Positions 1 to 21,348 of a DNA stretch of 64,000 bases are shown here, piece after piece. The position numbers and the translations under genes are program-made. The first letter of the stretch is position 1. The number at the start of each line of letters is the position of its first letter. The DNA comes from a virus. The stretch lies in the IMG/VR virus record IMGVR_UViG_3300032053_000008; one strand, 5' to 3'. The notes under the pieces are model-generated. The model was not told the origin of the DNA. It saw only the letters and a program-made list of their open reading frames with translations, and made no database searches.

Positions 1-277
1 GGTGATGACTCAAAAACGCCTGGTCCATCATTTTTTGTTGGTCTGGCTTAGATGCCGAATAAGCGTCAGCATTTTCAGATCTGTGGATAGCGTACTTTAG
101 CAAAAGAGATGAAGGTGAATGGGGAGAATGCTTATAGCTAGAATACATCTCATTTAGTGTAGCATTTGGCTTAAAGTGCGGCGTAGGTGCGCTAATAGGC
201 AAACTAGAATGGACCTGTAGCCCAATTTGCTTGTCTTGGCTGGTACTAGAAGACAATGCACTTGGGTGTTTAGTCAT
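1..277 (-). CDS. Hypothetical protein, 5' part only (runs off the window), MTKHPSALSSSTSQDKQ...
   Basis: ATG at 277 overlaps the end of the upstream gene; hand-translated frame is open to position 1; absent from the ORF track because it is truncated. Confidence 0.7.
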   Translation of the reverse strand, partial: MTKHPSALSSSTSQDKQIGLQVHSSLPISAPTPHFKPNATLNEMYSSYKHSPHSPSSLLLKYAIHRSENADAYSASKPDQQKMMDQAFLSHH

Positions 278-1337
278 CGTTATCATCCCCTATAATAACA
301 TGATAAGGGTCTTCTATTGGGCCGTCACCTAAAGTAGGGAAATCACTAGTAACTTGCCAAGATGGATTGTTTGGCTCGATAGGGTCAGTCAAACTAGTGC
401 GTGGCTTATACCCAGCCCATCTACCTTTGTTATTGGGTCCATTAGGCCCATCTTCTATAAGAACTTGTCCTGTAATTACTTCCAGTTTAGGGGCAGCATG
501 TTTAATCCAGGTGATTGGTACTACACCAGTCAAGGTTATATACCTAGAAAAAACAGTGTCGGCCTGGAAAGAATTATTTCTTTGAAGTGCGCTAGATGAA
601 ACTTTGGACAGCTCAAAAAGGCGACCTTCTAGGTAAGACTCTTTATATCGCATCAGGCAATACATCACAACCTGCCACATCCATATACAACATCCAGCAT
701 CGCCATTAGCATGACAAGCTATGGTGTAGCTTTCATTAATAAAAGAGATTTCTTGGTCTAGATTCCATACACCAAATTTGGTTCTGATGTGAGACCTGGA
801 AAAGTTCTCCCTTAGATCAGGAGCTATTCTAAATGAATTGTTTCCGGTAACTTCGTATATTACATAAGCTTTATTGGTTTTGTTGGCTACCAGAAATTGG
901 CCTTCTCTGATATTAGCCATGCTAACCGTGCTAGGCACAATAACTATACCAGTTACAGTGTCATAAGACTCTACGCTAAATGTAGGGGTAAGGTTTCTGG
1001 CATTTGTGACAATACCAGTTGGGTCAAATGGATCTATAAGCCTTTGGTCGCCCAAAGAGGTGCGGTCCATAGCTTCACTGTTGTCATTATACGAAACAAT
1101 AATACATGGCACCGGAACCGTGTCGGCTATACGGTAAGCCAATAAAACAGGGATTTCATTATTTAAAAACCAGTTAGAAGCAGCTTCTACTTCTTTGTAT
1201 CCATAGTCCTTAGAAGCAAGATAATCTTGAGCTAAGGTGCTAAATATGTCTTCAACTATCCACTTGTTTTTACGCAAATCCGCAATAGACGCTTCAAGCA
1301 TCGTTTTTATCAAAATATCACTAGATAAAACACCCAT
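270..1337 (-). CDS. Putative tail-terminator/neck-type virion protein
   Basis: Start moved to MGVLSS (1337), which gives a TAATG overlap with the upstream stop; lies downstream of the other neck genes; function from context. Confidence 0.55.
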   Translation of the reverse strand: MGVLSSDILIKTMLEASIADLRKNKWIVEDIFSTLAQDYLASKDYGYKEVEAASNWFLNNEIPVLLAYRIADTVPVPCIIVSYNDNSEAMDRTSLGDQRLIDPFDPTGIVTNARNLTPTFSVESYDTVTGIVIVPSTVSMANIREGQFLVANKTNKAYVIYEVTGNNSFRIAPDLRENFSRSHIRTKFGVWNLDQEISFINESYTIACHANGDAGCCIWMWQVVMYCLMRYKESYLEGRLFELSKVSSSALQRNNSFQADTVFSRYITLTGVVPITWIKHAAPKLEVITGQVLIEDGPNGPNNKGRWAGYKPRTSLTDPIEPNNPSWQVTSDFPTLGDGPIEDPYHVIIGDDNDD

Positions 1338-2188
1338 TATGCGCCCCTGAAATAGTCTTCTAAAGACTTTACTATTTTGTCCCATTCTTTAGTAGCATAA
1401 TCGTATGCGGCAGGAATACTGTGAAGAGGTTTAACTTCGGGGTACATCCACCTTCCCTCTGCCTCATGCTTGCTACTTACAACCCTAAATGTAACTACTT
1501 CTTTTTTGACCTTACCTCTTTTAGATGGTCTTTGGACCACAACTCCACCTGACAGATAGTGAGCACCTTCGTAGTTTGGTAGCCCTAGAGCTTCAGCTTC
1601 ATCAGCTGTACGCCCTTTAGACCGGTATTGGTATATGTTGTCGCTAGCCGGGTCATTTAACTGAGGGATGTCTTTTAGCCTGTTAACTATGCCAATCATT
1701 GGCATTCCATCGGGGCCTTTTTCGATTTTACGCATACTGACGCCATTTGCCTTAAGGGAGGCATCTATAGCTTCTCTCATACCAGAAGGAGTGGTCAGAG
1801 CGTTTTTGTCATGGCTAAAAGGTATGACCTTGAATTTACTGCCATCTTTGGCAGTCTTAAGTCCCGGACCTGGTTTAAGCAGCCAGTCTTCTGTTGCCAT
1901 ACTCACGGCTGGCCTACCGCTCTCGACCCACTTAGCTGATTCATCGATTTCTACTACCCACATATTCTTAGAAACTTGTATCCATCTGATATTGCTACCA
2001 TCTTCACCTAAAAATGCTTCTAGTGGGTAACCTTTTAAGTGGTCCTGAGCATACTTGATAATAAAAGCGTGGGTGGAAATAGAAAGGGCCTCTACAGCCC
2101 CATTCAATTTCTTTGCTACCTCTTTTTCTACAACACCTAGCTTATCAGCTATTTCTTTGTAGTTAGCCCTTATGGTAAAGTCGGTCAC
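1337..2188 (-). CDS. Neck/tail-completion protein (SPO1/Twort-like)
   Basis: Motifs LLKPG...KTAKDGSKFKVIPF and TFRVVSSK...W resemble the Herelleviridae-type neck protein; neck-module position. Confidence 0.6.
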   Translation of the reverse strand: MTDFTIRANYKEIADKLGVVEKEVAKKLNGAVEALSISTHAFIIKYAQDHLKGYPLEAFLGEDGSNIRWIQVSKNMWVVEIDESAKWVESGRPAVSMATEDWLLKPGPGLKTAKDGSKFKVIPFSHDKNALTTPSGMREAIDASLKANGVSMRKIEKGPDGMPMIGIVNRLKDIPQLNDPASDNIYQYRSKGRTADEAEALGLPNYEGAHYLSGGVVVQRPSKRGKVKKEVVTFRVVSSKHEAEGRWMYPEVKPLHSIPAAYDYATKEWDKIVKSLEDYFRGA

Positions 2189-3402
2189 TGCTGCTTAGCC
2201 TTTTGTTGTTGATTGTTGGCTTTTACCGATATATCAGTACCATCGGTAGCCTGAACTTGGCCTGAGGCCATTGAGCGCCATACTTCTTTACCGTTTACCA
2301 GAACTTTTTTGTAGTTGCCCTTGCGGGTTCCAACAGGGAAACGGATACCAGACATAGCCTGAGGACCAGAAGAACTGACGCCCTTTTTTTCTAGGTCTTG
2401 TTCAGATTTTTGAACTTGCTTGGCGCTGGTGATCAATTTCTGGATCATAGACATAGTTTGCTGGAAAGCTTTAGGGTCCTTGCTGGCCATAGCCATAATC
2501 TGAGGTATTTGCGCCTTAACGTCTTTAAGTTTGTCCATTAATTCTTGGTTGTGGTCGGCGGTAGCTTCTTTGGTAGCATCATCGACTTCTTGAGCTACTT
2601 CTTGTGCTGCCTGTTCTTGTTCCTGTCCGTCACCTTCGCCCTGTTGTTGTCCAGGTGCCTGTTGTTGTTGAGGCTGACCACTAAGTTGACCAAGCAAATC
2701 AGTAGTATTGGTATTAGCATGGGCATCTGGGTCTTCCTGGCCTTGCGGCTGTTGTTGTTGCTGGGCTTGTTGTTGTTGCATCATTTGCTGTTGTTGTTGA
2801 GCGGCTTGTTCGATTTCCCCGGCACCAAGCATTTCATTTATGGCTTGAATAAACTGGGCTTCAGCGCTAAAACTTTCTTTTAGAGACATACGCTTGGGCA
2901 CTGGATTAGATTTTTGGTCTATAACTTTTTGGTAAGGCTTGTCATCTGGCTGTTCTGGGTCAAATAGGTTGGTAGGCAAACTGACGTTTTGATTTATGTT
3001 TGTTCTTGAATTGGAAGTTTTTGTAATTTTTTCTTGGTAAGTATCTGCCGGATTAAAAAGTTCAACTTTACCAGTTTTATAAGATTTCTTGGCAGCCATT
3101 GCCGCTTCTTGGAAATCTAATCCAACACCAATAGCCAGTCCATCTCCAGCAGTTTCGGTAAAGTTTTCAATTAAATTAGGTAGTTCTGCCGCTACATCAA
3201 TAGGTATTTCCATAGCTATAAAGTCTGGATTACAAAATGGCATAGATCCACCGTGGGATTCCACAGTAGATTTCATTTTGTCTATAAGTCCCTGTAATTC
3301 AAACTGATAATGGTTGGCTACGCTAAATCGGCCCTCTTTGGCCGAATTAATTAGTTTGTCTCTTACTGCATCCGCAAATATAACTGCCCATACCTTACTC
3401 AT
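2185..3402 (-). CDS. Gln-rich head-associated protein with an N-terminal degenerate mCpol (minimal CRISPR polymerase, GGDEF-like) domain
   Basis: Residues ~1-117 follow the mCpol pattern (IFAD..., HGG...F.NPD...EIP, IGVG...EA..A....TGK); poly-Gln middle; KSE processing-like motif. Confidence 0.55.
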   Translation of the reverse strand: MSKVWAVIFADAVRDKLINSAKEGRFSVANHYQFELQGLIDKMKSTVESHGGSMPFCNPDFIAMEIPIDVAAELPNLIENFTETAGDGLAIGVGLDFQEAAMAAKKSYKTGKVELFNPADTYQEKITKTSNSRTNINQNVSLPTNLFDPEQPDDKPYQKVIDQKSNPVPKRMSLKESFSAEAQFIQAINEMLGAGEIEQAAQQQQQMMQQQQAQQQQQPQGQEDPDAHANTNTTDLLGQLSGQPQQQQAPGQQQGEGDGQEQEQAAQEVAQEVDDATKEATADHNQELMDKLKDVKAQIPQIMAMASKDPKAFQQTMSMIQKLITSAKQVQKSEQDLEKKGVSSSGPQAMSGIRFPVGTRKGNYKKVLVNGKEVWRSMASGQVQATDGTDISVKANNQQQKAKQQ

Positions 3403-3406
3403 ACGC

Positions 3407-4522
3407 TCACCTGTATTTTGTATTCAGCTTGTTTTTTAAGGTTTCGACAAAAGCTTCAATGATTTCTGGATCTGCTTTTGAACTAAAACTTATTTTATAT
3501 CCACCAGATGTTTTACTCAACCTTAAAAACGCTTTATTTTTGTTTTCTTGGGAAGTTACATAAAAACAAGCACAAGGGGAATATTTTGGGCCAGACTCGG
3601 ACTTAGTAAACTCAGGAGTTTTGCAATGAGGGCAAGGAGCGTATAAATCTGATTCGCTTATTGTGATTTCCGGCTCTTTTTTCTCTAGTTGAGCTTTAGT
3701 AAGATAGTTCCTGAAATAAGTGGCTGGTGTAGATGTAGGTTTGGCAGGTTTAGTGGCTGCGATGTTGAGTTTGTGTTGGATCATGGCCGGATTTTGTGCG
3801 GTATCGGCTTTTGTTTGCCCTTTGGTTTGCTGGGTAACTTGTTTGGTCATTGCCGCTTTAGGGTCTCTAGATGGAGCTGTTGCTTTAAGTGGAGCTACCG
3901 GTCCGTTTGGGGCAGCGTGGCCACTTGGGGCACCAGTTTCGTGCATTCCAGCTTTTTCAATCTTTTCTTTAGAGTCTTCCACCGCTTTAGCGGTAAACTT
4001 TTCGTCCATTATTCGATCAATAACTTTACCAAGAATTTTAGTAACTTCCACCATTGCATTAATGGCAGTGTCGGACTGTGGCATAACTGGCATATGAATA
4101 TCTGAGGCAGACATCAAGGCCGCTGGCAATTCACTAGAACCAGCTTTTTTGCCGTCATAGTCTTCAGTCATGGACATCAAATGTCCGCCAAAGGCTGGCA
4201 AAGTTTGGTTTTCAAAGGAATGGACAATATGTCCACCTTTTATGAATTGGGCAGTATAGGCATCTAGGCCAGTTTTATTGACTTGGATCTTTAGGTCGTC
4301 TAGGCCAGGATAAGATAAAACCTTTTCGTCACCTGGGTGCATAGGCTTAATGGAAGATACTAGCCAGGACAATATGGTTCTAGGGACAGCTAAAATAGGC
4401 AGATACATATCAATAGGAGACAAAAGAGATTTGCTGTCCCTACGATACATAGTCTTACTTAGCGTTTCAAAGCCGTCATCGCCAAGCAAGCTTTTTAGTA
4501 GTTTTTCTGCCTTAGTGTGCAT
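3407..4522 (-). CDS. Hypothetical head-associated protein with a C-terminal Cys cluster (CPHC...CAC)
   Basis: 371-aa ORF in the late operon; several phi-x-K|S/T/A motifs. Confidence 0.6.
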   Translation of the reverse strand: MHTKAEKLLKSLLGDDGFETLSKTMYRRDSKSLLSPIDMYLPILAVPRTILSWLVSSIKPMHPGDEKVLSYPGLDDLKIQVNKTGLDAYTAQFIKGGHIVHSFENQTLPAFGGHLMSMTEDYDGKKAGSSELPAALMSASDIHMPVMPQSDTAINAMVEVTKILGKVIDRIMDEKFTAKAVEDSKEKIEKAGMHETGAPSGHAAPNGPVAPLKATAPSRDPKAAMTKQVTQQTKGQTKADTAQNPAMIQHKLNIAATKPAKPTSTPATYFRNYLTKAQLEKKEPEITISESDLYAPCPHCKTPEFTKSESGPKYSPCACFYVTSQENKNKAFLRLSKTSGGYKISFSSKADPEIIEAFVETLKNKLNTKYR

Positions 4523-5917: not shown

Positions 5918-6387
5918 CTGAAGTCCTTGTGACTAAGCAATACGTCAGGTAGAGAGTTAAGGGAAATATTACGTACAACCATTTTACTTTTGTCGGTATA
6001 TGACAGTTTTTGCAAGTCTTCTTTTTTAGACAAACCAATGTCATCTGTTTCCGTGTTGAAAGTGACGTACAAGGGCGAGTCTGGGAAATCTGTTTGAATA
6101 GGGGTAGCAAAATATGCCAATAGCTTAGAATAAAGATCTATGTCAGATTTCATTAGATCTTCGCTTTTAACCATGTCTTCATTCCACTTGATCTTTGGCT
6201 CAGCTTTTTCAGCCATCCACTTAGCTACGGCTTTGTGGGGAGCCATCGACAGGGTTTTAACCTCAGACTTAGACTTTTGAAAAAAGCAATGCAAACCGCC
6301 ATGAGTCAAAATGTACATAATAGGGTCTTTGTCGAAAGTAGCCCCTACGATCTTTTTTTCTGACACTTGATCTAGATCAATTTTCAT
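5914..6387 (-). CDS. Hypothetical head-associated protein
   Basis: Coupled by ATGA overlaps; contains MVKSEDLMKSD motifs. Confidence 0.6.
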   Translation of the reverse strand: MKIDLDQVSEKKIVGATFDKDPIMYILTHGGLHCFFQKSKSEVKTLSMAPHKAVAKWMAEKAEPKIKWNEDMVKSEDLMKSDIDLYSKLLAYFATPIQTDFPDSPLYVTFNTETDDIGLSKKEDLQKLSYTDKSKMVVRNISLNSLPDVLLSHKDFR

Positions 6388-6788
6388 AAAGTAAACATCC
6401 TTTTGATTCTATCAAGGAAAGTCGGCTTGTTGTGTTCTGGTTCGATTTCCTTGTCTTCAAAGGCATTGTCTCTAATAATATGCTCTTTTTGATCTTCTCT
6501 GGCCCGATACTCTAACCACTTATAAAAATCAAAAGAAAAATCAATGCTTTTAGGTAGCTGCAATTGAGTTTTAATTAATGGTTTTTCTTTATTAAAATGG
6601 GCCGCCAAATAAGAAGTACTGTTAAAATACCTCAATAAGAAAACTTTTGCTTCATCAAGATCTTTTGCTTTGTCTAGCATAAGGCTTATGGATGGGTAAC
6701 TTTCAACAATTGGTTCCATGTCAGACCAGTTGTTAACTTTAAACTGTTTTTCTTCATTGCTCATGGTGTTTTTAACTATTAATATCAC
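6384..6788 (-). CDS. Hypothetical protein
   Basis: Overlaps both neighbours in the operon. Confidence 0.55.
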   Translation of the reverse strand: MILIVKNTMSNEEKQFKVNNWSDMEPIVESYPSISLMLDKAKDLDEAKVFLLRYFNSTSYLAAHFNKEKPLIKTQLQLPKSIDFSFDFYKWLEYRAREDQKEHIIRDNAFEDKEIEPEHNKPTFLDRIKRMFTL

Positions 6789-8094
6789 CTAAGAATTTCC
6801 TTACCTTGTGTGACATAAACGGAGTTAAATGTTTGGCCCCATTTGGCATCTTGTCGTCATGGGCAAGTATATCACGGAGTTTAAGTTTGTCTAGGTGTTT
6901 ATGGTAGTCAGTTTTTTTGCCGTTGTCTTGCATAAGAGCTTTAGTTATATGAAGTTTGGCTTGGATTCCATTGTCGTTATGTGGAAAATTACCTAATATT
7001 TCTAACAATTTATCTTTAGGTATATCATTAAACTGCTCTTTGCCTGTAGCTGAGCCAACAGCTTCAGATATATCCCATGGATTATGAGTTTTTCCATGCA
7101 AAGATTTAGCTACGTGATTTAAAGCTTTGTCTGGGGTACCATCAAGATATAGAACATTACTTTTGTTTTTTGGTTGATCTGCGGAAATATCCGAAAAGAA
7201 TGGTTCATGCCCAGCTAAAGTGTCATTTGCCCATTTAGTCATGGCATCGTGTCTGGATTTATAAGAAGATACTATGTGATTTTTCCAGTCATCATGTTTA
7301 ATGCCGTTAGCTTCATCAATCAAAGAGCCTTTAACTTTTGGAGCACTATTTAACCACCAAGATGCTAAATTTTTAGCATGTTGGTGGTCTCTATCGGCCT
7401 CTGGAGTAAAACGATATAAAGCACTGTTACGCGTTAAGTCTTCCATTGAGTTAGTACCACGATCATAACCAAAAGCGAAAGAGTGATCAATAGCTAGTGG
7501 ACTGTGATACCCTTTTTGGTCTGGAAGATTATTGGCCATTATATTGCCAGAATGTCTGTCAATATTACCTGTAAGGTAGTCCATTACATTAATTTTATTA
7601 GCAACAAGTGGATCTATTTGATGTTTTTGATGGTTATATTCTTCAGTATTATCAGCAAACTTGTGGACCATTACCGGCATTTCACCAATAGAAGTGCTTA
7701 GAGTGTGGTGTTTTACATCTTCGATGTTGTGGTGTAGGCCAGCCGCTTCGTACATTCTTTTTGTGGCTGAGGTAGCAAATCCACCTAAACCGTTGTTTAC
7801 TTTAGAGTTATAAGGCTTAACCATAAACGTACTGTTTGGCGTTTTGTATACCAGCTTGTCTTCATACCCTTCAGCCATATTTTTAGGCTTGTGGTGTTCG
7901 CTAGAAGACACGGCTTGATCAAAGTCCGCATGACCGCCAGCAGATTGGGTAGGTTTCAGATATGACGCAGATTCTTCATTGTGGGCCTTACTAGCAAAAT
8001 CAGTCAATGAGGGCTGGTCTAGCTTTTTAGCCAGCAACTGTTCAGTAGGTAAGTACTCAGGTTGAGTCCTTAGTGTATACCACGCCTTTATCAT
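6772..8094 (-). CDS. HipA/PI3-4-kinase-like atypical kinase, probably virion-associated
   Basis: FMVKP (ATP-binding Lys), DYLTGNIDRHSGN (catalytic loop) and AIDHSFAF (metal-binding motif) are all intact. Confidence 0.8.
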   Translation of the reverse strand: MIKAWYTLRTQPEYLPTEQLLAKKLDQPSLTDFASKAHNEESASYLKPTQSAGGHADFDQAVSSSEHHKPKNMAEGYEDKLVYKTPNSTFMVKPYNSKVNNGLGGFATSATKRMYEAAGLHHNIEDVKHHTLSTSIGEMPVMVHKFADNTEEYNHQKHQIDPLVANKINVMDYLTGNIDRHSGNIMANNLPDQKGYHSPLAIDHSFAFGYDRGTNSMEDLTRNSALYRFTPEADRDHQHAKNLASWWLNSAPKVKGSLIDEANGIKHDDWKNHIVSSYKSRHDAMTKWANDTLAGHEPFFSDISADQPKNKSNVLYLDGTPDKALNHVAKSLHGKTHNPWDISEAVGSATGKEQFNDIPKDKLLEILGNFPHNDNGIQAKLHITKALMQDNGKKTDYHKHLDKLKLRDILAHDDKMPNGAKHLTPFMSHKVRKFLGDINS

Positions 8095-8992: not shown

Positions 8993-9430
8993 TTACACCC
9001 TATAAGATTTTTGACCGCTAAGATGTATAGCCAGGTCTGTAGCTGTTTTAAAGAAAGTCATTTTAGTTTGAGTAGGGGTTAGGTTAGGTGGGGTAACCAT
9101 GCTAATTTCATCTAGCTGCACCTCAAATCCGCCAAAGGAAATGCAGTCAGATGGGCCAACAGTTACTTTATAGATAGACTGGTCACCAGCAAAAGCTTGT
9201 ACACCAACACGCTCAAAAGCATCGGCTTCATCTAAACTAGCAAAAAGAACAGTAACTGTGTTGCTGATATCGCCCTGGGGTATATAACGAATAAGCTCAC
9301 CACTACAGTTTGTTTTGTAGAGTTGAAAATATAGATCCTGGGTGTTGGTCTTTTGGAAATGAAGTTCGTCTTCTACGCAATATTCATTAGGACCACAAAC
9401 GTTGCTTAGGAACTTGAAATAATACATCAT
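8993..9430 (-). CDS. Hypothetical protein, possibly virion
   Basis: TAATG-coupled to the upstream ClpP gene; 145 aa. Confidence 0.55.
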   Translation of the reverse strand: MMYYFKFLSNVCGPNEYCVEDELHFQKTNTQDLYFQLYKTNCSGELIRYIPQGDISNTVTVLFASLDEADAFERVGVQAFAGDQSIYKVTVGPSDCISFGGFEVQLDEISMVTPPNLTPTQTKMTFFKTATDLAIHLSGQKSYRV

Positions 9431-10026
9431 TACTTTGGCCCTTTTTGCATAGGACGATTAAACCCTAAAACAGTTGTGGAAGGTAAAAAACAAAACTCTG
9501 GCATACCAATATGGTCTACTAGACCGTATTTTTTAGCTTGCATAGGAGTCATAAAAAGATCTACGTTGCCTTGACCTTTTATTAATTCTTTCCATTCATC
9601 TGCACTAAGTTTGGTATCTTCACCTAGCTGTTTAATCATCTTTTTATTAAGGTTATCTAGCATTTTAGCTGAATTTTGAAATTCAGCGTTTTTACCCCCT
9701 ATTTCACTTAGGGAAACTTCATGAACCATAAAATCTGATTCATGGGTAGCAAAACGATATCCAGCAGAACCGGAAGAGGCTAAAAGAGCACCGCAAGACA
9801 TTGCTTTACCTACTACAACAGTTGCTACAGGTTTAGAGGCTCTTTTAATAAGAGATCTCATTGCTTGGCAATTATGATATTGTCCGCCGTAACTATTTAT
9901 AAATATAGTGATTTCATTAGAGTCTGAAAAGAACTCTAAAGCATAAAAATGCTGGTAAAACTTTTCTACATCCTCATCTTCAAATTCATTTACCCAAATA
10001 TAAGGCAGAACGTCTGGGGATGTCAT
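9430..10026 (-). CDS. clpP: ClpP-family serine protease (copy 2)
   Basis: INSYGG, AMSCG (Ser), MVHE (His), DLFMTPMQAKKYGLVD (Asp); GGAG RBS. Confidence 0.9.
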   Translation of the reverse strand: MTSPDVLPYIWVNEFEDEDVEKFYQHFYALEFFSDSNEITIFINSYGGQYHNCQAMRSLIKRASKPVATVVVGKAMSCGALLASSGSAGYRFATHESDFMVHEVSLSEIGGKNAEFQNSAKMLDNLNKKMIKQLGEDTKLSADEWKELIKGQGNVDLFMTPMQAKKYGLVDHIGMPEFCFLPSTTVLGFNRPMQKGPK

Positions 10027-10034
10027 AAAAACTC

Positions 10035-10829
10035 CTAGTCCAGTGATACTGGTTCACCTATGGTAATATTAGGGTCTGATTCGTCTTTTTGTGGGATTTT
10101 AACAATAATTTCGGTATGTTGGTGCTCTTTAAGAGTTCTTTTTAAGAGACCTTCTACAGTTTTCTTTAGCTTAGCCTCAGAAGGGGATTGCTTAAGGTGC
10201 TCTTGACGTTTTTTCCTTAAATTGCCGCGCTTTACGGCTGGAACTAAGTCATCAGCTAAACCTAGATTCACTGCATCTTGGGCTGACATCCAGGCGTCTC
10301 TACCTGAACTAAGGAGTTGTTTATAGAATTTTTCATCCATGATAGAATTGTCAGCATAAAACTTACACATCTTGTCGTGTAACAGGTCGCCTTCAATCAT
10401 ATCAATCTTATTGTTGGTATATTTGTCTTGCATAAACGAGCTGTGTTCATGCAGCATTATTCTGGTGTTTGGATACAAATACCTTTCATCACACGCAACC
10501 ATCAAAAGACTGGCAGCAGAACATATCCAGCCGCCGCCATAGAACTTGATTTGACAACTAGAGGCCAAGATAAAGTCAATAAGATAAAAGGCATCGGCGG
10601 TACTTCCACCGCTAGAGTTCATGTACAAAGAAATTGGGGCTTTGGGGCTATCATGGATCATCCTGTTCATGCCACGTATAGCTGTTTCCACAGTTTTGGA
10701 ATTAAATGAAGTAAAGTCGTCTTCGTCAATATTGTCAGGGGAAATACCAAAATGAATAATACGATTTTTAGTGTCTATTCCATAGACTAGAAAGTCATCT
10801 ATTGCTGTCTTTTCTTTCTGTGTCGCCAT
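10035..10829 (-). CDS. clpP: ClpP-family serine protease (copy 1) with a charged C-terminal extension
   Basis: MNSSGG, ICSAA (Ser), IMLHE (His), DAWMSAQDAVNLGLAD (Asp). Confidence 0.9.
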   Translation of the reverse strand: MATQKEKTAIDDFLVYGIDTKNRIIHFGISPDNIDEDDFTSFNSKTVETAIRGMNRMIHDSPKAPISLYMNSSGGSTADAFYLIDFILASSCQIKFYGGGWICSAASLLMVACDERYLYPNTRIMLHEHSSFMQDKYTNNKIDMIEGDLLHDKMCKFYADNSIMDEKFYKQLLSSGRDAWMSAQDAVNLGLADDLVPAVKRGNLRKKRQEHLKQSPSEAKLKKTVEGLLKRTLKEHQHTEIIVKIPQKDESDPNITIGEPVSLD

Positions 10830-12132: not shown

Positions 12133-13542
12133 TTAGCTCAAGTTTTGGATCAAGACGTTTTTACGTGGCTCATAGCCAGCAAGTGTCAAGAAGCGGAAGT
12201 GAGCTTCTGGGACGCTCAAGTCAGCTACAGCCAGTTTCAAGCGGCTATATGGTGCAAGTTCACCCATACCCCAGGTGTCTTTCTGGACAAGGTGACCAGT
12301 AACGAAGCCTGGGATGCGGTTGCCCAAGTCAACAAACGCAGTCGAAGCTGGTGTGTCGATTTTGACGCGACCGATATACTTAGCGTCAGAACCATCGGTT
12401 TTGAAACCACGGTATACGCTGAAGAACAAAGTGCCAGCGCCTGGGGAAGCGATAGTAAGGGTGATTTTTTGACCAGCAGTAGCAGCTTGGGTTACAGTAG
12501 AGCTACGTGGGGATTCGCCGCGCTCGTTAGAAGCGGTAACGAAGTAAACGTAGGTAGCAGCAGCCAAAGATCCGCCAGCAGCAGCAGCAGCCGTTGGAAC
12601 AACAGGAGCATTAGGGGAACCGATGGATGGACGCAGTGGAGCAGTTTTACCCGACAAGAATCGGCTGTCTTCCAGAGCGATCGTACCATTAGAAACCCAC
12701 TGACGACGAAGGTCAGCACCGGAAGCGTCTTGAGCCGAACCGGCCAAGTGAATACGCTGGATAGAAGCACCGGCATTAGAGCCACCGTTCAAAGCAACAG
12801 CTTTGTTATAACCAGCAAGAACGATTGGGTCAACAAGCAGCAATTCTGCTTTACCCATGTTCATACGGCTACGAACAGCGGAATCTTCAATGATGCCTTG
12901 GCTGAGGGAACCGTTTTGGTTGAGGACAACCGACTGGTTCGAGCCGTAGGAATCAAACATTAAGTCTTGAGTGTTGAGCAAGTAGTCAGATTGCGTAACT
13001 TGGCACTCAACGCCAAGGATGTTTGGCAATTCTGGCATAGCAAGTGGGTTACAGTCAAACACACCAGCATTGCTGAAGTCGGCTTTTCCACGGAAAAGAT
13101 CGAATTCGATGTCGCCAGCCAGTTTCATAGCTGCGTTTTCAGCTTCACGGTCGGAACCGCCTTTGCCGTCAAACGTGTCAACCATGTTAGCTGCAACAGT
13201 TACCCGACGAACGGTCGAGTAAAAGCACATTGGCACAGTTGCTCGGATGTAATCACCCGTGTCAACATCACCAATAGCGCCTTCGCGCATAGCCGTTCCA
13301 CCGAAATGACCGTAGCTTAGCTGACGGTTAAATTGCATCAAAAGTGTTTTGACTTTTTTAGAGCCAAACATTTTTTGCAATTTAATGTGACTGTCATCGA
13401 AAGTCACGTTGTACATAACCGAAGACAGATCTTCGATTTGAAGGGCCGAGCCTTGTACAAGCGTACTAGGAGCAGCATTGTACTGACCAGCCGTCAAGGT
13501 CTTGACGAGTGATTCTAGTTGTTGATTGAGATTGTCAAACAT
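12133..13542 (-). CDS. Major capsid protein (SPO1/Twort-like, with a C-terminal FN3/Ig-like insertion)
   Basis: N-arm LVK|TLTAG...GSALQIEDL, IEFDLFRG, YVYFVTASNERGES, GELAPYSRLKLA; follows portal-protease-scaffold. Confidence 0.92.
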   Translation of the reverse strand: MFDNLNQQLESLVKTLTAGQYNAAPSTLVQGSALQIEDLSSVMYNVTFDDSHIKLQKMFGSKKVKTLLMQFNRQLSYGHFGGTAMREGAIGDVDTGDYIRATVPMCFYSTVRRVTVAANMVDTFDGKGGSDREAENAAMKLAGDIEFDLFRGKADFSNAGVFDCNPLAMPELPNILGVECQVTQSDYLLNTQDLMFDSYGSNQSVVLNQNGSLSQGIIEDSAVRSRMNMGKAELLLVDPIVLAGYNKAVALNGGSNAGASIQRIHLAGSAQDASGADLRRQWVSNGTIALEDSRFLSGKTAPLRPSIGSPNAPVVPTAAAAAGGSLAAATYVYFVTASNERGESPRSSTVTQAATAGQKITLTIASPGAGTLFFSVYRGFKTDGSDAKYIGRVKIDTPASTAFVDLGNRIPGFVTGHLVQKDTWGMGELAPYSRLKLAVADLSVPEAHFRFLTLAGYEPRKNVLIQNLS

Positions 13543-14450
13543 TATTTTTTACTCCTAAGTATTTCGATTACTTTGTCTTTGCCTGCATAATTCAAAATGT
13601 AGTTATTAACGAGATCACGTTCTGATTTGTTCAGTGTACCCGATCGGCACACGTCATTCAGACTAGCTTTCAAAGCTTCATCCGACATTTCAGCAAAGTT
13701 TGGCTGAGCTGCAGCTTGCGCGGCAGGAGCTTCGCTTTTTGAGATGTACTGGATTTCAGAAGTGATTGCTTTTCTTACTGGTTGGGCAAGAATTTTAACC
13801 GCTTGCAGAGCTTTATCAAGGCCAGCTTTGAGTTCGTCATTGCTTTTCTTTAAGTCTGCAACTTCCTTGGCCAAACCATTGGTTTCTGATTTTTTCATAG
13901 CTGGTGAACTCATTTCACCGCATTTGTCCATTTCTTCTTTAGCTATCCCAGCCTTAATTTGGCCGCCGTTTGCTTCAGGAGCTTTTTCGGCTTTGGAGTA
14001 TTGCTGCTGGAGCAATCCACGGATAACCATATAGTGGCGCTCTAGCTCTTCTGGAGCCATAGAGCTATACACTTGCTGAAGTTCTTCATCAGACAAATTC
14101 TGGTCTTGAGCAGGATCTTGGCCTTCTTGACCTGGTTCCTGTTGTTCTTGACCTGGCTGTTCTTGTCCTTCTTGACCTTCAGCTCCTTCTGCCATTCCTT
14201 CACCAGCTTCTGGCGCTTCTTGTACTGAAGCTTGATCTTCAGCACCAGCAGCGGCTGGAGCTTGGGCTCCAGCATCAGCGGCGGGGGCGGCAGGTGCAGC
14301 TGGGGCCGGGGCAGCAGCAGCTTGGTCGGCTGGAGCTTCCTGGTCGTCGCCAAAACCCTTAGACAGATCTTCAGACTTTTTCATGGCTTCAGCAAAAGCT
14401 GAGTCAAGGTCTGCAAGAAGATCGTCCAGGCTCACCTGTACGTTTTTCAT
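13542..14450 (-). CDS. Putative capsid scaffold/core protein
   Basis: Immediately upstream of the MCP; acidic, Ala/Gln-rich and coiled-coil; many KS/KA motifs; AAGGAG RBS. Confidence 0.7.
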   Translation of the reverse strand: MKNVQVSLDDLLADLDSAFAEAMKKSEDLSKGFGDDQEAPADQAAAAPAPAAPAAPAADAGAQAPAAAGAEDQASVQEAPEAGEGMAEGAEGQEGQEQPGQEQQEPGQEGQDPAQDQNLSDEELQQVYSSMAPEELERHYMVIRGLLQQQYSKAEKAPEANGGQIKAGIAKEEMDKCGEMSSPAMKKSETNGLAKEVADLKKSNDELKAGLDKALQAVKILAQPVRKAITSEIQYISKSEAPAAQAAAQPNFAEMSDEALKASLNDVCRSGTLNKSERDLVNNYILNYAGKDKVIEILRSKK

Positions 14451-15554: not shown

Positions 15555-15561
15555 AAGATTA
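15555..15561 (-). promoter_or_regulatory. Putative late promoter motif TAATCTT
   Basis: Exact 14-mer shared with 4938-4951. Confidence 0.6.
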
Positions 15562-18500
15562 AGTAACTGGCTTTTTCCACATCATAAGACTGTTCTTACC
15601 AAACGGTCTTTTACTAACTTTTTTGGCCGTACCGCTGTCAAAATTCTTTAGCTTATGGTAGTCGGTCTTAGTCCAGCCATTTTCTGGTGGATAGTGGATG
15701 TACATATGCTGCAGCCATTGCGGGTAAGGCTTAGGGTCATTCATACCAGACATATAAGCTCTAACATCGTGTCCATGCATATACAAACCTTTGACACCGG
15801 CCTTTTTGGCTGTGTCATTAACGGCTTGGTGCGCGGCATCTAACCACCCAGAAGTTAAGTCTTGGATTTTTTTAGCATATTTGCCAAACTCTTCTATTGA
15901 GTAACTTTTACCGTTTATTACAATAGATTTATGGCCTTTTTTGGCTATATCATCCAGCTCTTTTCTTAGACCAGCCGAAAAGTCTGATTGAGTCTCTTCA
16001 ATTAGCCAGTTTTCTGGATCTGATGTATCCACCCTAGCCCAACCTACTGTATAAGGACCATTAGGGTGATCGCTGTATCTGCCAGATTCATTTATGTAGT
16101 CGTAAACGTTCTTTAGGTCTTTGTCTTCAATAATAGCTTTTTGGAGTTTTTCGTTAGCATTAACCTGAACTACTAAATTGTTTTGGTCAGAGTGTCTTTG
16201 GGCTCCATCCCATTTAGTGTAAGTAACTTTGTAATTGTCCTGGTTATTAACTATAGCTTTGTTGACTAGCTCTGGAGTCATTGTGTGCTTTGGTGATGCC
16301 AAAAAAGCGTCTTGTATCTTTTTGTTGTTGGCTAACTTAGGAGCAGTCCGTTTAAAAGTGCCCCAATCCATACCTTCAGGTGGAATGATGGAACTAAGCT
16401 CCTGGAACAGGTGCCCCGTCTTAGATGCATTTACCGACGAAACAGTTGGTTGCCCTTTGATGTTTAGATTTTTTGTGTCAGGTATCCTTGGAGTAAGGTC
16501 GTTAAACATGTTGAGGCCATGAGGAACAACATTAAAAACTGGGCTCCACTCTTTTCCAACTTCAAAAACATGGTCATAGGTTGGATTGTTTCTCAGTCTG
16601 GTCCTTAAATAGTCAAATTCTGTTTTTGTCAATTTAGGGTTTTGGATAAGTGTATGGGTGTCATAGCTACGGTCAAAAAGGTCAGCTATAGATTGTTTGG
16701 ACAGCTTATCGGATATTACTAAATCTTTTAAATTTACATCAGGGATATCGTAAAGGTTCTTATGGAAAAAAGCTTCCGATTCTGGTGAATCTTTTACAAA
16801 TTTATAAGTTGACGGGTCAAGATCGCTTAGATGCTCTGCTTGAAACTGTGGGCTACCGCCACCAGCCTGAACTATATCATCAATAGCTTCCGGAAGCTGA
16901 TCGATTTGTTTATCTGTTAAGTGAGGGGCTATTCCCTTCAAAGATCCAGTATAAAGATGTCCTACCGTTTTACTTCTTAGAGTTTTAGCCCATTGAACCC
17001 ATTTGTCTATAGCTTCCGAGATATGACTTGGGTCCATTTTTCTGACTACATCGGAAACATGTGACATCATTTCATTAGCTTCTGATGCACTCATGTCTAT
17101 GCCACTAATAACATCAGGTATGGGCATGTTGTCTGGATGAATCTTTTGGTGTCTTAGCAAAAACATACCGTTTGGTTCACTAGCCATCTTACGATGGACA
17201 GACGGACTAAACTCTGCATTTGATGCAAATTTTATATTAAAATCGGGATCATAGTGATTTTTTGTAGCTTCTAGAAGTTTATCGGTATTAGGACCTGTCA
17301 ATTTCACATCATTGAGTTCTAGTTCTCTGTCAAAAATGTTTTCGTAAATTTCATCCGATATGCCGTCATTTCGGATATGATCGGCAATATGACCCAGAAG
17401 ATCGTTAGATGTCTGAGCGTTTGTTTGGCTTTGTTTACCATTACCAGACTTTTGCAGATACTGGAAAAGGTAGTCCATGCTTTGGTCATACAAAAGTCTT
17501 TGTCTTTTATCTTTGTCGTTTACCATTTGGGAAACAACATGGTCCATAACTGTTCCCTGATTAGCTTTTTCATCTGAGGCGCTATTGATAAGTCTGGTTA
17601 AACTTCCTGCGTCAAGTTTGGAGTTAAGATGACTAGCTAGTTTGGTAGAATACTCTGGACCCATTTTGTCAGCATTTTGTTTAAGCAATGGATGAATATC
17701 GTCCCACTGCATTAGGTCTGCAGGCAAAATGTCTATGGTTTTGTCTACTAATTGGGCAAAACCGTCTTTACTTAGTTTAGAATAGCCAGAGTGGATTACA
17801 CTAAGAGCCTGATTAGCGTTGTTTATATGAGGTATCAACTTAATGGCCAAAGAAGGGTTAATGTTTTTAGCTATAGGGCTGTTGTTATTAATTTCCTGAA
17901 AAATATCATTAAGTTGGCCAAATTGTTTTTCGTTAGCATTGGCAGCTTGGCTTGAACCTAGCAACTTAGATGCAGCAAAAGACTCCAATTCACTCTTATT
18001 GGGCAAACCTGTACCTTCCGAAGAACCTAAAAGGCGACTGGTTACATCCAGGGAAGTAGAATAAGACTTACCGGTAATTTCCCCAGGCTTGTTCATAATA
18101 GCTTCGGCGGTGTCTTCTGGGTTCATTTTGCCGCTAGTATGAAGCATAGACAAAGCTTTAGACCACTGGTCATCATCAGACATTACATTAAGAAATGACT
18201 TAAGCTGAACCGAGTTTGATTTTTTCTTTGTTTCAAGTATCTTAGGGATATCTTTGACAAATTTTGCTTGAGCTTCTGGCGAGGCAGTTCCATCTGGAGT
18301 GTGGCTAGCCATTTTGGCTGCTGTGCCATAGTCTCCTAGTTCTAGTGCTTTGTCGGTCATATGACTAAAAACCGGTCCTTTGGATGCTTCTGGCAATTTG
18401 TCTACTATATTAGCCACTAAGCTGATTTTCTTAGGGTGTTTTGCTATAAATTGGTTAATAGCATCCATAGCAACAGCATGGTGCTTTTGTTCTGAATAGT

Positions 18501-21348
18501 TTCCTTCTACATCAGTAAAAGCCTCTTTGTTGCTTAAGGATTTGGCTACCAGTTTAGAGGCATCTAGTTCAGTTTTACCGGCACCAATAAGTTGACCTAT
18601 TGTTTGGGAAATTTCTTGGTCACTGGCTCCCTTAAAGACATCGTTATTGCGTAAAATATCGTCAAGATATTCTGTTCCGGTGTCTTGTTTGTGGAACTTC
18701 ATCAAAGAGTCTAAATACGGCTTTATGTGACCAAAAGGTTTATCGGATTTAAAAGATCTACGGAGTTCTGTTGCAAGCATGTCTTCGTTTTGATGAACAT
18801 GCTTGGCTGTTTGTTGGTCATTTAAAATGCCATACTTGTGCATTTGCTGTATAATCGGATGACCTTCTGGTGCTGTGTCTATAAGATCTGACAACAAGTT
18901 TTGATGTTCTGGTTTCGGATCATATCTATTAAAAACAGCTGAATAAGCATCATGCCGATTTTGACCAGAACTGTCCAAAAAGTCATGTAAAAACTGCTTT
19001 TTTTCTTGATCAGGCAAGTTACTTTCATGCAAATTTGGAATCAAATTTCTAGTATATGCGCTAAGCTGTTGAGTTCCTGGCATAAATTCGTCTTTGTCGG
19101 CACCAGCCTTTTGGCTAAGCGACTTTAAATGTTCCCGGTATTGCGGGTCTTCCAATACGCCTGGAATTTCAGTCATCTTACTAGCAAGACGAGATGCACT
19201 TTGGGTGTCACCGTTTTGGATTTCTTGGGCCATAACTGAGTTAATATGGTGCATCAGTTGAGGAGTTGGCTTGTTGTCCTGGATCATGCCAGACTGTTCA
19301 AGGTTTTTAATAAGGTAGTATTCGTTAAGGTTGTGACCTTCGGTGTTGCTCAAAACCTTGGTAATCTCTTGGTCGTTAAGTTTGTGTGGGTATTCATTTT
19401 CATGGTATTGGTCTATCCATGCGTCAGAATTTTGGCGAATTTTTTGGTGATGATCTTCGTTTAGGTAGTCAATATTGGCAATAGCAGACATGGGCAACCC
19501 ATATCTTGGGCCATGCTTAATTGTTGTGTCTATGGCGTCATGTATGAGATCGTCTCTTTTTTGGCCACGGTCCATGTTGTCCATATGACTAACAAATGAT
19601 CTATGAACGGTAGGACTAGCTAAGGTTTGTCTCATAAAACCTTCACCCTTTTGTGCGTCAACTTTTTTAGCTATTTCAGCCCTAACGCTTGGAGGAAGAT
19701 TATTGTTTTCCATCATTGTGTGTAACAGTCTAGGCAATACAGAATAGTCGTCTTTTTGCAACGCCGCGTCTGTTAGGTCGTTGGCTACTTTTGGTGAATA
19801 ATTACCAAATCTTATTACTTTATGGCTTAAATCATAGTCATGTTCACCAAATTTAGTAACAATATCAGACATATTGTCCTTGATGCCCTTGTCAACTACT
19901 TCTTGGACTCCTGGATAAGAGTTGATCATTTCTAAATCTGATAAGTTTCCGTCTTTTTTAATAGTTTCCAAGCTTTTGTGTAGCTTGTCACCAGATAAAA
20001 GGCCGCTTTTAATGGCGTGATTCAAAATGTTATATTTGTCATTTGAGGTGCCATGAGGCATAGACAGAGCTTTGTCTACTCCAGCTATAACAGTTTCTTT
20101 GTGGTCAGGATTTTCTGCTATTCTTTCACTTATATCATATAGATCAGGTTTGCCGGTTTTAATATGATCGGCTGCTACACTATCTGGCAAATGTTTGCTG
20201 TGAAAAGCTTGTAGGGCTATTTCTTGGTCATCTCCATCTAAAGCTTTTCTAAGATGATCTTGGTTGTCTGTAGTTCTAATTATCCTAGATCTAGTTTCTT
20301 TGTCGCCATGGTTAAAGGCGTGGTCAACAATATAAGAAGGTGATTCTTTATAATATTTTTTGAATGCATGCTTGTCCTGGATTTCTCTAGGTAACGTCTG
20401 GAAAAGCTGCTCTTTGTCTTGGTCAGATAGCTTAGGGTGTTCGGTGACGCTATTATAACCGTGCCGATAAAGCTCCGCCTCTTGGTCTTTTGTTAGATTT
20501 TCGTTTTCCTGGAAGTTTCTAATGGCTTTTTCGTCGCCGTTGCGTAAAAAACCCTTAAACATTTCGTCAGGTATTCTGGCGTGAGCCTGGGCTGCTGAAG
20601 AAATGTCTTGTCTGTCACTTTTAAGTGATTTGGCTACATAGTTTGCTGGCAAGTTTGGGTGCGCAATTAACGAATTGAATCCCCTTGTTTCACCTTTGTC
20701 AATAGCTTTGTCGGCTACGCTAGTTAAAATCTCTGGCGGCGAGTTTTGCTGTTCACCGAAAAATCTCATGGGGCTATAGTGGTGCTGTTCTACGAAATCT
20801 TTGTGATCTGCTAGCTCTTGGGCCGTGTGTTGAATTTTTGGTCCAAGGCTTTCATCTATTATGGTTGAGATGTGTTCAGGGTAAGAATATGCAGGTCCAG
20901 CTTCGCCAGCAGCTAACCTTTGGGTAAAGGTGCGTAGCTCTGGTAGTGGCATATGTAGGGTATCAATTTGTGTGTTATTGTCTTCAGATTCTTGGTTTTT
21001 TTTCATAAAAGCTATAAGCTTGTCATGATCCAAGCCAGGGGTATCCGCAACTCTTTTAACGGTTCTTGTTACAACATCTTTAGGTTCTATTGCACCGCTA
21101 TTATACTGATCCATAAAATGGTTAGAATGGTCAGCATCATGCAAGCCACTATTAAAAGCGTGAAAAAGTAAAGAAGGTTGAATTTCTTTATTTTCAGGCT
21201 TCCAGGCGGCAGTATATAGTTTTTGGGTGTGGCTTTTGTCCCAATTGTCGGAACCAGAAACGGCTATTAAATGTGAGCTATTTTTTGTTTGAATATATTT
21301 GTCAATAATGTCGTGAATCTTTTCGCTTTTTTCTGGTGTATCAGTCAT
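15559..21348 (-). CDS. Giant (1929-aa) helical-repeat protein, probable internal head/ejected protein
   Basis: Uninterrupted 5.8-kb ORF between protease and capsid genes; His/Asp-rich helical repeats; C-terminal GWARVD...LIEETQSD motif. Confidence 0.65.
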   Translation of the reverse strand: MTDTPEKSEKIHDIIDKYIQTKNSSHLIAVSGSDNWDKSHTQKLYTAAWKPENKEIQPSLLFHAFNSGLHDADHSNHFMDQYNSGAIEPKDVVTRTVKRVADTPGLDHDKLIAFMKKNQESEDNNTQIDTLHMPLPELRTFTQRLAAGEAGPAYSYPEHISTIIDESLGPKIQHTAQELADHKDFVEQHHYSPMRFFGEQQNSPPEILTSVADKAIDKGETRGFNSLIAHPNLPANYVAKSLKSDRQDISSAAQAHARIPDEMFKGFLRNGDEKAIRNFQENENLTKDQEAELYRHGYNSVTEHPKLSDQDKEQLFQTLPREIQDKHAFKKYYKESPSYIVDHAFNHGDKETRSRIIRTTDNQDHLRKALDGDDQEIALQAFHSKHLPDSVAADHIKTGKPDLYDISERIAENPDHKETVIAGVDKALSMPHGTSNDKYNILNHAIKSGLLSGDKLHKSLETIKKDGNLSDLEMINSYPGVQEVVDKGIKDNMSDIVTKFGEHDYDLSHKVIRFGNYSPKVANDLTDAALQKDDYSVLPRLLHTMMENNNLPPSVRAEIAKKVDAQKGEGFMRQTLASPTVHRSFVSHMDNMDRGQKRDDLIHDAIDTTIKHGPRYGLPMSAIANIDYLNEDHHQKIRQNSDAWIDQYHENEYPHKLNDQEITKVLSNTEGHNLNEYYLIKNLEQSGMIQDNKPTPQLMHHINSVMAQEIQNGDTQSASRLASKMTEIPGVLEDPQYREHLKSLSQKAGADKDEFMPGTQQLSAYTRNLIPNLHESNLPDQEKKQFLHDFLDSSGQNRHDAYSAVFNRYDPKPEHQNLLSDLIDTAPEGHPIIQQMHKYGILNDQQTAKHVHQNEDMLATELRRSFKSDKPFGHIKPYLDSLMKFHKQDTGTEYLDDILRNNDVFKGASDQEISQTIGQLIGAGKTELDASKLVAKSLSNKEAFTDVEGNYSEQKHHAVAMDAINQFIAKHPKKISLVANIVDKLPEASKGPVFSHMTDKALELGDYGTAAKMASHTPDGTASPEAQAKFVKDIPKILETKKKSNSVQLKSFLNVMSDDDQWSKALSMLHTSGKMNPEDTAEAIMNKPGEITGKSYSTSLDVTSRLLGSSEGTGLPNKSELESFAASKLLGSSQAANANEKQFGQLNDIFQEINNNSPIAKNINPSLAIKLIPHINNANQALSVIHSGYSKLSKDGFAQLVDKTIDILPADLMQWDDIHPLLKQNADKMGPEYSTKLASHLNSKLDAGSLTRLINSASDEKANQGTVMDHVVSQMVNDKDKRQRLLYDQSMDYLFQYLQKSGNGKQSQTNAQTSNDLLGHIADHIRNDGISDEIYENIFDRELELNDVKLTGPNTDKLLEATKNHYDPDFNIKFASNAEFSPSVHRKMASEPNGMFLLRHQKIHPDNMPIPDVISGIDMSASEANEMMSHVSDVVRKMDPSHISEAIDKWVQWAKTLRSKTVGHLYTGSLKGIAPHLTDKQIDQLPEAIDDIVQAGGGSPQFQAEHLSDLDPSTYKFVKDSPESEAFFHKNLYDIPDVNLKDLVISDKLSKQSIADLFDRSYDTHTLIQNPKLTKTEFDYLRTRLRNNPTYDHVFEVGKEWSPVFNVVPHGLNMFNDLTPRIPDTKNLNIKGQPTVSSVNASKTGHLFQELSSIIPPEGMDWGTFKRTAPKLANNKKIQDAFLASPKHTMTPELVNKAIVNNQDNYKVTYTKWDGAQRHSDQNNLVVQVNANEKLQKAIIEDKDLKNVYDYINESGRYSDHPNGPYTVGWARVDTSDPENWLIEETQSDFSAGLRKELDDIAKKGHKSIVINGKSYSIEEFGKYAKKIQDLTSGWLDAAHQAVNDTAKKAGVKGLYMHGHDVRAYMSGMNDPKPYPQWLQHMYIHYPPENGWTKTDYHKLKNFDSGTAKKVSKRPFGKNSLMMWKKPVT

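Follow-up and report, generated by a model that had tools for sequence, protein, structure and literature searches.

A degenerate mCpol-type palm domain in a late protein of an Mx1-like phage

Why would a phage carry, in one of its late genes, a domain that resembles a nucleotide synthase of bacterial antiviral defence? The question is raised by a window of 64,000 nucleotides, the whole stretch of DNA that was analysed, which comes from the 136.8 kb IMG/VR virus record IMGVR_UViG_3300032053_000008. The source virus is an uncultured relative of Myxococcus phage Mx1, the closest cultured phage, with which it has 55% identity in the capsid protein. On the minus strand of the window an open reading frame (ORF) running from 2185 to 3402, with its stop codon at 2185-2187, encodes a protein of 405 residues, the first 117 codons of which (3052-3402) were proposed in a first-pass annotation to encode a degenerate mCpol domain. 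It was shown only in 2025 that mCpol is the synthase of the Panoptes system, and in a search of the literature mCpol was described only in cellular defence operons, with no paper found on phage-borne domains of this type. The answer favoured here, to which we give a probability of about one half, is that a dead mCpol has been exapted as the dimerisation module of a late protein that is processed or docked through a short motif and is probably associated with the prohead or virion. The gene and its N-terminal domain, in window coordinates, are:

2185 to 3402, minus strand: the whole gene, belonging to an uncharacterised four-part family of late proteins of Mx1-like phages.
3052 to 3402, minus strand: mCpol-type minimal palm domain, catalytically degenerate, residues 1-117 (Pfam, PDB profile, AlphaFold2, Foldseek).
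3106 to 3129, minus strand: G92-x-G94...E99-A100, a core strand and the start of a helix; G92, G94 and E99 are invariant in 43 sequences.

Residues 1-117 are a true mCpol-type palm domain, in fold and by homology. The Pfam mCpol family PF18182 aligns with residues 11-114 over positions 7-110 of its 114-position profile (E 0.0045), with a score of 17.8 bits (19.5 bits in the genome scan) that lies under the gathering cut-off of 26.4 bits. All family statistics given here are drawn from an alignment of 43 full-length members, with columns numbered by the residues of the 405-residue protein; 19 of these members match mCpol independently, the best at E 4e-6, and no other family recurs on the domain, GGDEF_2 being matched by just two. 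When the family profile was compared with the PDB, the top matches were the Panoptes OptS mCpol structures 9mnr and 9pd0 (E 0.01), then the mCpol structure 9nwn (E 0.027), the alignments to these chains running end to end without gaps over ~110 residues; phmmer with the N-terminal domain against PDB sequences gave nothing. The G-x-G...E-A pattern is common to mCpol and aligns with the same pattern in OptS.

The structural searches agree with this. The AlphaFold2 model built from the family alignment has a predicted local distance difference test score (pLDDT) of 91-97 over residues 1-120 and an order of strands (b) and helices (a) of b-a-a-b-b-a-b-a, and its six best Foldseek matches in the PDB are all to 9pd0, 9nwn and 9mnr (E 1.8e-5 to 1e-4, template modelling (TM) score by target 0.69-0.74, 118-122 columns), followed by GGDEF domains, class III cyclases and Cas10. 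Identity to OptS in the Foldseek alignment is 17-19%. For the same protein the ESM Atlas has a model that also matches mCpol clusters, with TM scores of 0.76 and 0.68. The mCpol-like match first proposed for residues ~1-117 is therefore borne out by Pfam, the family profile, the AlphaFold2 and Foldseek results and the ESM Atlas, a palm or GGDEF-like fold having been found by profile and structure searches that both rank mCpol first.

An exhaustive phmmer search with residues 1-125 gave 60 representative matches, of which ~45 are full-length proteins of ~400 residues with the domain at the N-terminus, and the family members are all annotated as hypothetical proteins. Three long repetitive proteins (with Hcp, CARDB and NTF2 repeats) among the weak representative matches were rejected as spurious. 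A scan of viral contigs with the single protein gave no relatives, tblastn with the 405-residue protein as query produced no match at E 1e-3 among 50,697 phage records, and PHROGs holds no family for it. The 43-sequence alignment was too diverse for a pattern search of the viral contigs, whereas an alignment of the 9 closest members worked. The Mx1 orthologue surfaced only with the family profile and not with single-protein tblastn; it is the hypothetical protein WNM70340.1 (OR576727.2, 33963-35369), encoded at the same position upstream of the sheath gene, and it matches the N-terminal, helical and C-terminal domain profiles at E values of 1e-12, 9e-7 and 2e-7 and Pfam mCpol at 4.6e-4. It differs in being 468 residues long, in having an insertion after the KSE motif described below and in having lost both catalytic acids (to Ser and Ala).

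Sub-profiles of the N-terminal domain, linker, helical part and C-terminal domain match every full-length member, and the order of the parts is invariant: palm domain, disordered linker, long helical hairpin, then a small beta-rich domain after a near-invariant K-[SA]-E...L-x-K motif. No stand-alone relatives of 64-219 residues came from a word-index search, and a search for longer ones gave, besides members of this family, just two polyvalent proteins of the GNAT type, so that no relative with an intact catalytic set was found.

What, then, has become of the catalytic centre? KpOptS requires D6 and D57 for activity (PMC12657218), and mCpol dimerises around a shared active-site pocket, with the base-selecting residues S30 and N34 on helix 2 setting its selectivity for ATP (PMC12657230). 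In the ungapped alignment to 9nwn and 9mnr, D6 falls on F9, D8 on D11, D57 on D60, and S30 and N34 on Q33 and Q37. The motifs that had been read as FAD and NPD are both present:

3370 to 3378, minus strand: F9-A10-D11 at the position of the mCpol D-G-D; F9 replaces the catalytic Asp, KpOptS D6 (HMM alignment).
3223 to 3231, minus strand: N58-P59-D60 in the b2-b3 hairpin; D60 aligns with the second catalytic acid, KpOptS D57 (profile alignment).

Column 9 is occupied by S in 20 members, N in 6, A in 5, D in 4 and F in 2; a further 18 fragments and fusions have the same pattern of catalytic loss, and the Mx1 orthologue has Ser and Ala at the column-9 and column-60 sites, both acids being gone. 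The loss of the strand-1 Asp is thus a property of the family rather than an oddity of this copy. At the base-contact columns 33 and 37, which are variable, the Ser equivalent to S30 is found in 15 of the 43 and the Asn equivalent to N34 in 4. The hairpin position has fared differently: column 60 is E in 20 members and D in 17, so that an acid is kept in 37/43, and the next column is Arg in 34/43 and Phe in this protein. At column 11, equivalent to D8, 24/43 have D or E, and acids stand at both canonical positions in 2/43. No GGDEF signature was seen: the hairpin sequence is C-N-P-D-F, it is not preceded by an RxxD I-site and PF00990 has no match here. As read from these alignments the family as a whole has lost both the metal-binding Asp of strand 1 and the base-contact residues, and the domain is almost certainly inactive as a synthase. 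The first-pass annotation had called the copy probably inactive, which agrees with this, and of the two catalytic motifs on which it relied it is the strand-1 Asp that most homologues have failed to keep (Asp in 4/43) and the hairpin acid that most have retained.

Whilst catalysis appears to be gone, the pairing of two domains is predicted to remain. Modelling of two copies of residues 1-125 gave a pair score of 0.55 against 0.02 for the best control, in a benchmark in which the mark was reached by 20/30 proteins solved as pairs and 1/23 solved as single chains; at least 95% of contacts were in common between runs and the partner pLDDT was at least 82. The predicted interface comprises residues 17-33 (helix 1-2), 55-63 (hairpin) and 97-101, and is the face that forms the active-site pocket of the mCpol dimer (pocket from PMC12657230). 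In the modelled dimer the hairpins contact each other, 59 with 59 and 58 with 59. In the model there is contact between positions 22 and 61, which co-vary, being D/R in 34 members and K/F, R/F or N/F where Arg61 is gone.

The palm domain is followed by a disordered linker, in which a Q/E-rich stretch and two short conserved motifs (LPPNLFDP and DLLEAL.G) are found, and then by the helical hairpin and a basic C-terminal domain:

2956 to 2979, minus strand: L-P-T-N-L-F-D-P, residues 142-149, a conserved short motif in the disordered linker (alignments, AlphaFold2).
2623 to 2802, minus strand: Q-rich acidic linker, residues 201-260; 43% Gln, net charge -6, pLDDT 45-59.
2410 to 2622, minus strand: conserved long helical hairpin (IPQIM...P.AF.Q), residues 261-331 (AlphaFold2, family alignment).
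2386 to 2409, minus strand: K332-S-E-Q-D-L-E-K339, shared motif and candidate head-protease processing or docking site (alignment, genome search).
2188 to 2346, minus strand: small basic beta-rich C-terminal domain, residues 353-405; net charge +7, isoelectric point 10.4.

In the first of these motifs the 9 closest members never vary at L142, P143, N145 or P149, the consensus over all 43 is LPPNLFDP and the pLDDT is ~50-58. AlphaFold2 places helices at 261-282, 286-308 and 310-341, with P300 and P310 invariant; VIA-align matched the helical part to generic helical hairpins alone, at Z of no more than 8.5, which is background for helical models, a separate AlphaFold2 model of residues 256-405 was of low quality (mean pLDDT 62), and from neither did an assignment of the beta-rich domain follow. 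The C-terminal domain has predicted strands at 364-369, 372-377, 382-384 and 390-392 (pLDDT ~80) and near-invariant residues P356, G358, K366, G371, W375 and R376. There is a marked split of charge, with residues 1-331 at net -18 and residues 335-405 at net +7, and the family is alike, with a median of +7 for the C-terminal domain.

The motif at the boundary between hairpin and C-terminal domain is not confined to this protein. In the family K332, L337 and K339 each reach at least 90% conservation, and a search of all ORFs in the genome with the pattern K-[SAGT]-E-(x)-[DE]-[LIVM]-x-K gave five copies where 0.19 were expected, the maximum in any of 200 shuffles being 2. All five copies lie in proteins of the virion cluster: residues 332-339 of this protein, two junctions of a polyvalent protein, a 157-residue protein and a 302-residue scaffold-like protein. 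The motif was also found in polyvalent and neck-cluster proteins encoded by Mx1 and by two of the related IMG/VR phages (L010 and L012). The copies in the two smaller proteins are:

14358 to 14378, minus strand: K-S-E-D-L-S-K, near the N-terminus of the 302-residue scaffold-like protein upstream of the capsid gene (motif search).
6148 to 6168, minus strand: K-S-E-D-L-M-K, in the 157-residue neck-cluster protein (motif search; kept in the L010 orthologue).

The motif suggests processing by the head protease, or a common docking site, because it is common to the scaffold-like protein and to the junctions of the polyvalent effector, and for the same reason the release by proteolysis that had been envisaged is plausible. 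The 302-residue protein itself (13542-14450, minus strand), whose gene stands immediately upstream of that for the capsid, matches no family and contains h-x-K-S-E at four sites; it is likely to be the true scaffolding protein, cut at several places. A scaffolding protein would be encoded beside the protease and capsid genes, which the 405-residue protein is not; what would be expected of a polyvalent or cargo protein, a virion-gene setting and a junction motif common to head-assembly proteins, is found.

Gene context was read in five IMG/VR phage loci (138-160 kb) and in Mx1. In the present genome the cluster runs leftward throughout, from terminase, portal, a 1929-residue ORF, the 302-residue scaffold-like protein, capsid and two ClpP-like head proteases, through an adaptor-like gene, a PI3/4-kinase-like gene, genes for proteins of 157, 322 and 131 residues and a gene of variable length, to the 405-residue gene, after which come genes for 283 and 371 residues, the polyvalent protein of 886 residues, 469 and 94 residues, sheath and tube. 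The 405-residue gene lies ~9 kb downstream of the capsid gene and five genes upstream of that for the tail sheath. The order is conserved between the five phages and Mx1, in its first half as protease, adaptor-like, 157, 322 and 131 residues and the variable gene, and in its second as the 405-residue gene, 283 residues, 371 residues, variable polyvalent genes, sheath and tube. The 405-residue gene is therefore a fixed core gene amid neck or tail-completion genes and variable genes of effector type. The protein had at first been placed in the head module; a late virion-gene operon is indeed its setting, yet it is ~9 kb from the capsid gene and its neighbours resemble neck and tail-completion genes. 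The nearest named clusters to the 283-residue neighbour by ESM features are HK97 gp10-like and P2 gpS tail-completion proteins (scores 0.90-0.92, which are leads only), and PDB profile searches with the neighbouring 283-, 371- and 322-residue proteins gave nothing usable. No nucleotide-sensing effector (2TM-beta, CARF-TM or HEPN) stands beside the gene, the neighbours in all six genomes being phage late genes.

A second mCpol-like module is found nearby. The profile of the present domain matches residues 474-577 of the adjacent 886-residue polyvalent protein at E 1e-8, and this paralogous module reaches 26.5 bits against Pfam mCpol and is also degenerate, with Ser at the D6 position; it keeps the hairpin Asp followed by Phe, a pair common to the two proteins. 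The host protein of this module is of the ART/GNAT type; its gene (G000:C1:61510-64170, minus strand, locus L006) lies to the left of the window and extends into window positions 1-286, and within it the mCpol-like module adjoins the GNAT domain and is flanked by two K-[SA]-E-D-L-E-K-G-Q-N-G-D-W junctions. In another of the related phages the polyvalent slot (L009:13181-15715, plus strand) is occupied by an 845-residue protein with a 2H phosphoesterase (LigT / 2'-5' RNA ligase), a fold with which viruses break down the signal nucleotides of immunity. Mx1, for its part, encodes NUDIX and kinase proteins as well as an intact GGDEF cyclase in the head module.

When these observations are put together, the reading that we favour is as follows. 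The palm domain would no longer make nucleotides and would homodimerise through the face that once formed the two-protomer active site, with a family-specific Asp22-Arg61 pair across the interface in most members. The dimeric head would be tethered by the disordered Q/E-rich linker, with its two short motifs, to the helical hairpin and basic beta domain, and KSE(x)DLxK between the two latter parts is most likely to be a cut site of the ClpP-like head protease or a docking site. On that account the protein is probably built into or processed in the prohead, which would give an acidic dimeric fragment of 37 kDa and a basic fragment of 8 kDa. The earlier suggestion that the domain may have been repurposed structurally is a better fit than an accessory role in counter-defence, given a fixed core gene of invariant architecture in six related phages.

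Several points weigh against this. Conservation is no higher at the predicted interface than elsewhere in the domain (permutation p 0.35); the dimer, being a model, may have passed only through its likeness to solved mCpol dimers; and the co-variation of positions 22 and 61, for which there are ~three independent changes, might stem from contact between the two positions in a single chain. Retention of the hairpin acid in 37/43, and of an acid at the D8 equivalent in 24/43, leaves room for some residual binding of metal or nucleotide. A search of the literature found no proteomics of Mx1 or its relatives, and presence in the virion and cleavage are predictions. Furthermore, the same cluster is rich in modules of counter-defence type (ART, GNAT, 2H phosphoesterase, NUDIX and kinase), and because of this an immune-related role gains some prior weight.

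A possible alternative, though one we doubt, is that the protein is a neck or tail assembly factor and not head cargo, that is a dimeric chaperone or a minor component of the neck or collar, with the motif as a docking site. The position of the gene among neck-like genes, directly upstream of the 283-residue protein with its gp10- and gpS-like leads and with the sheath five genes downstream, is what such a role would predict, and a stronger candidate for the scaffold is the scaffold-like gene beside that for the capsid. Head processing is nevertheless a better fit to a motif that recurs at polyvalent junctions and in the scaffold-like protein. There are also three metagenomic relatives (P0052, P0053 and P0054) with 250-560 extra residues after the complete four-part unit and a K-[SAD]-E junction; the extensions of P0052 and P0053 have HExxH motifs and may be zincin-like cargo, and none of the three has a Pfam match. 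Extensions of this kind are cargo-like and so count against an assembly factor.

It would seem unlikely that the protein is a packaged sponge or decoy, in which a dead dimer, delivered with the DNA or made late, binds a signal nucleotide of cyclic oligonucleotide-based antiphage signalling, type III CRISPR or Panoptes in its old pocket and so blunts host signalling. Such a role would suit a cluster that holds the ART/GNAT protein with its second mCpol-like module, the 2H protein and the NUDIX, kinase and GGDEF proteins of Mx1, as well as the hairpin acid kept in 37/43, and it has parallels in the degenerate GGDEF domains of PelD and PopA, which are nucleotide receptors. GGDEF and 2H modules also occur in phage polyvalent proteins, although the term mCpol does not occur in the survey of these (PMC5512222). 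Set against it are the variable equivalents of the base-selecting S30 and N34, the lack of an RxxD I-site, the touching hairpins that in the predicted dimer would leave little of a pocket, the Mx1 orthologue without either acid, and the status of the gene as a fixed core gene rather than a variable accessory one. Moreover, the product of mCpol in Panoptes is an inhibitory signal, the lowering of which activates defence, so soaking it up would trigger the system (PMC12657218). The related proposal of the first-pass annotation, a dominant-negative decoy, was set aside on the same ground as regards the mCpol of host Panoptes, as less of the inhibitory signal would set off the defence and be self-defeating for the phage (PMC12657218).

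Less likely again is a broader form of this idea, that Mx1-like phages load their capsids with a dimeric dead mCpol, of which there is a second copy in the polyvalent effector, that acts on host cyclic-nucleotide immunity. If it were so, the domain would, after injection, either bind signal nucleotides or present the effector with an imitation of the synthase, and would be a viral pseudoenzyme mimic of a signalling enzyme of the Cas10 family.

That the domain is still an active synthase, using the non-canonical D11 and D60, is very improbable: both residues are present here and two of the 43 relatives have acids at both canonical positions, but column 11 is acidic in just 24/43 and column 9 is Asp in only 4/43, mutation of D6 in KpOptS abolishes full activity (PMC12657218) and the Mx1 orthologue has Ser and Ala at the two sites. 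A chance resemblance between mCpol and a small alpha/beta domain of other descent, for which a Pfam score below the gathering cut-off and 17-19% identity to OptS might be cited, can hardly be entertained when independent sequence and structure searches all put mCpol first in full-length alignments and the adjacent paralogous module scores above the Pfam cut-off and is matched by the profile of this domain at E 1e-8.

How the protein compares with characterised systems depends on which of its features is considered. With mCpol and the OptS of Panoptes (PF18182; 9mnr, 9pd0, 9nwn; PMC12657218, PMC12657230) the domain has in common its minimal palm fold and size, the G-x-G...E-A core, the hairpin acid and the same face for the predicted homodimer. 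It differs in that the strand-1 Asp and base-contact residues are missing and the Pfam score is below the cut-off, in being fused to ~290 further residues, and in being encoded in a phage late structural operon rather than beside a 2TM-beta or CARF-TM effector.

The degenerate GGDEF domains of PelD, PopA and FimX, which are receptors or scaffolds, are alike in that a palm cyclase fold has outlived its catalytic function and been turned to binding or assembly. Unlike the present domain, they keep an RxxD I-site or another site for cyclic di-GMP, none being seen here, and they are cellular and not viral; GGDEF structures also match the model less well (TM score by target 0.39-0.49).

Polyvalent and head-packaged effectors (PMC5512222; T4 Alt) have a similar virion-gene setting, modular build and junction motifs as in head-assembly proteins, with the paralogous mCpol-like module in the adjacent ART/GNAT protein as a further link, and GGDEF modules are known in them. 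The 405-residue protein is unlike them in having a single enzyme-like module, which is dead, and in the fixity of its architecture and position, as polyvalent proteins vary.

What emerges is a whole lineage of large phages with mCpol-derived domains in conserved late proteins, in which the catalytic centre has consistently been lost. Either a protein associated with the virion has been built in part from the fold of an immune enzyme, or phages bear mimics of an enzyme with which the host signals, and as Mx1 can be cultivated on a genetically tractable host the question is directly testable. The shared KSE(x)DLxK motif also provides a handle on the proteins that Mx1-like phages process or package.

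Some other features of the locus can be recorded. Mx1 encodes between its prohead-protease polyprotein and capsid genes a 243-residue protein with an intact GGDEF domain (WNM70324.1, L002:17173-17904; Pfam GGDEF 38 bits), for which blastp found no homologue in the genome from which the window comes. The two ClpP-like head-maturation proteases are adjacent paralogues (9430-10026 and 10035-10829, minus strand; phrog_94, E 8e-22 and 1.5e-26) that sit downstream and not upstream of the capsid gene. The 1929-residue ORF between portal and capsid (15559-21348, minus strand) has no Pfam or PHROG match, and the Mx1 gene in its place encodes 1239 residues annotated as a putative prohead protease. Among the neck genes there is a PI3/PI4-kinase or HipA-like kinase (6772-8094, minus strand; Pfam E 1.2e-5), which in relatives is 590-620 residues long and to which a gene annotated as a kinase corresponds in Mx1. 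Finally, the gene directly upstream of that for the 405-residue protein (3407-4522, minus strand) matches no family; its product carries T-K-S-E at residue 305 and ranges among the relatives from 181 to 649 residues, of which ~120-190 are held in common, and the gene looks like another swappable cargo slot.

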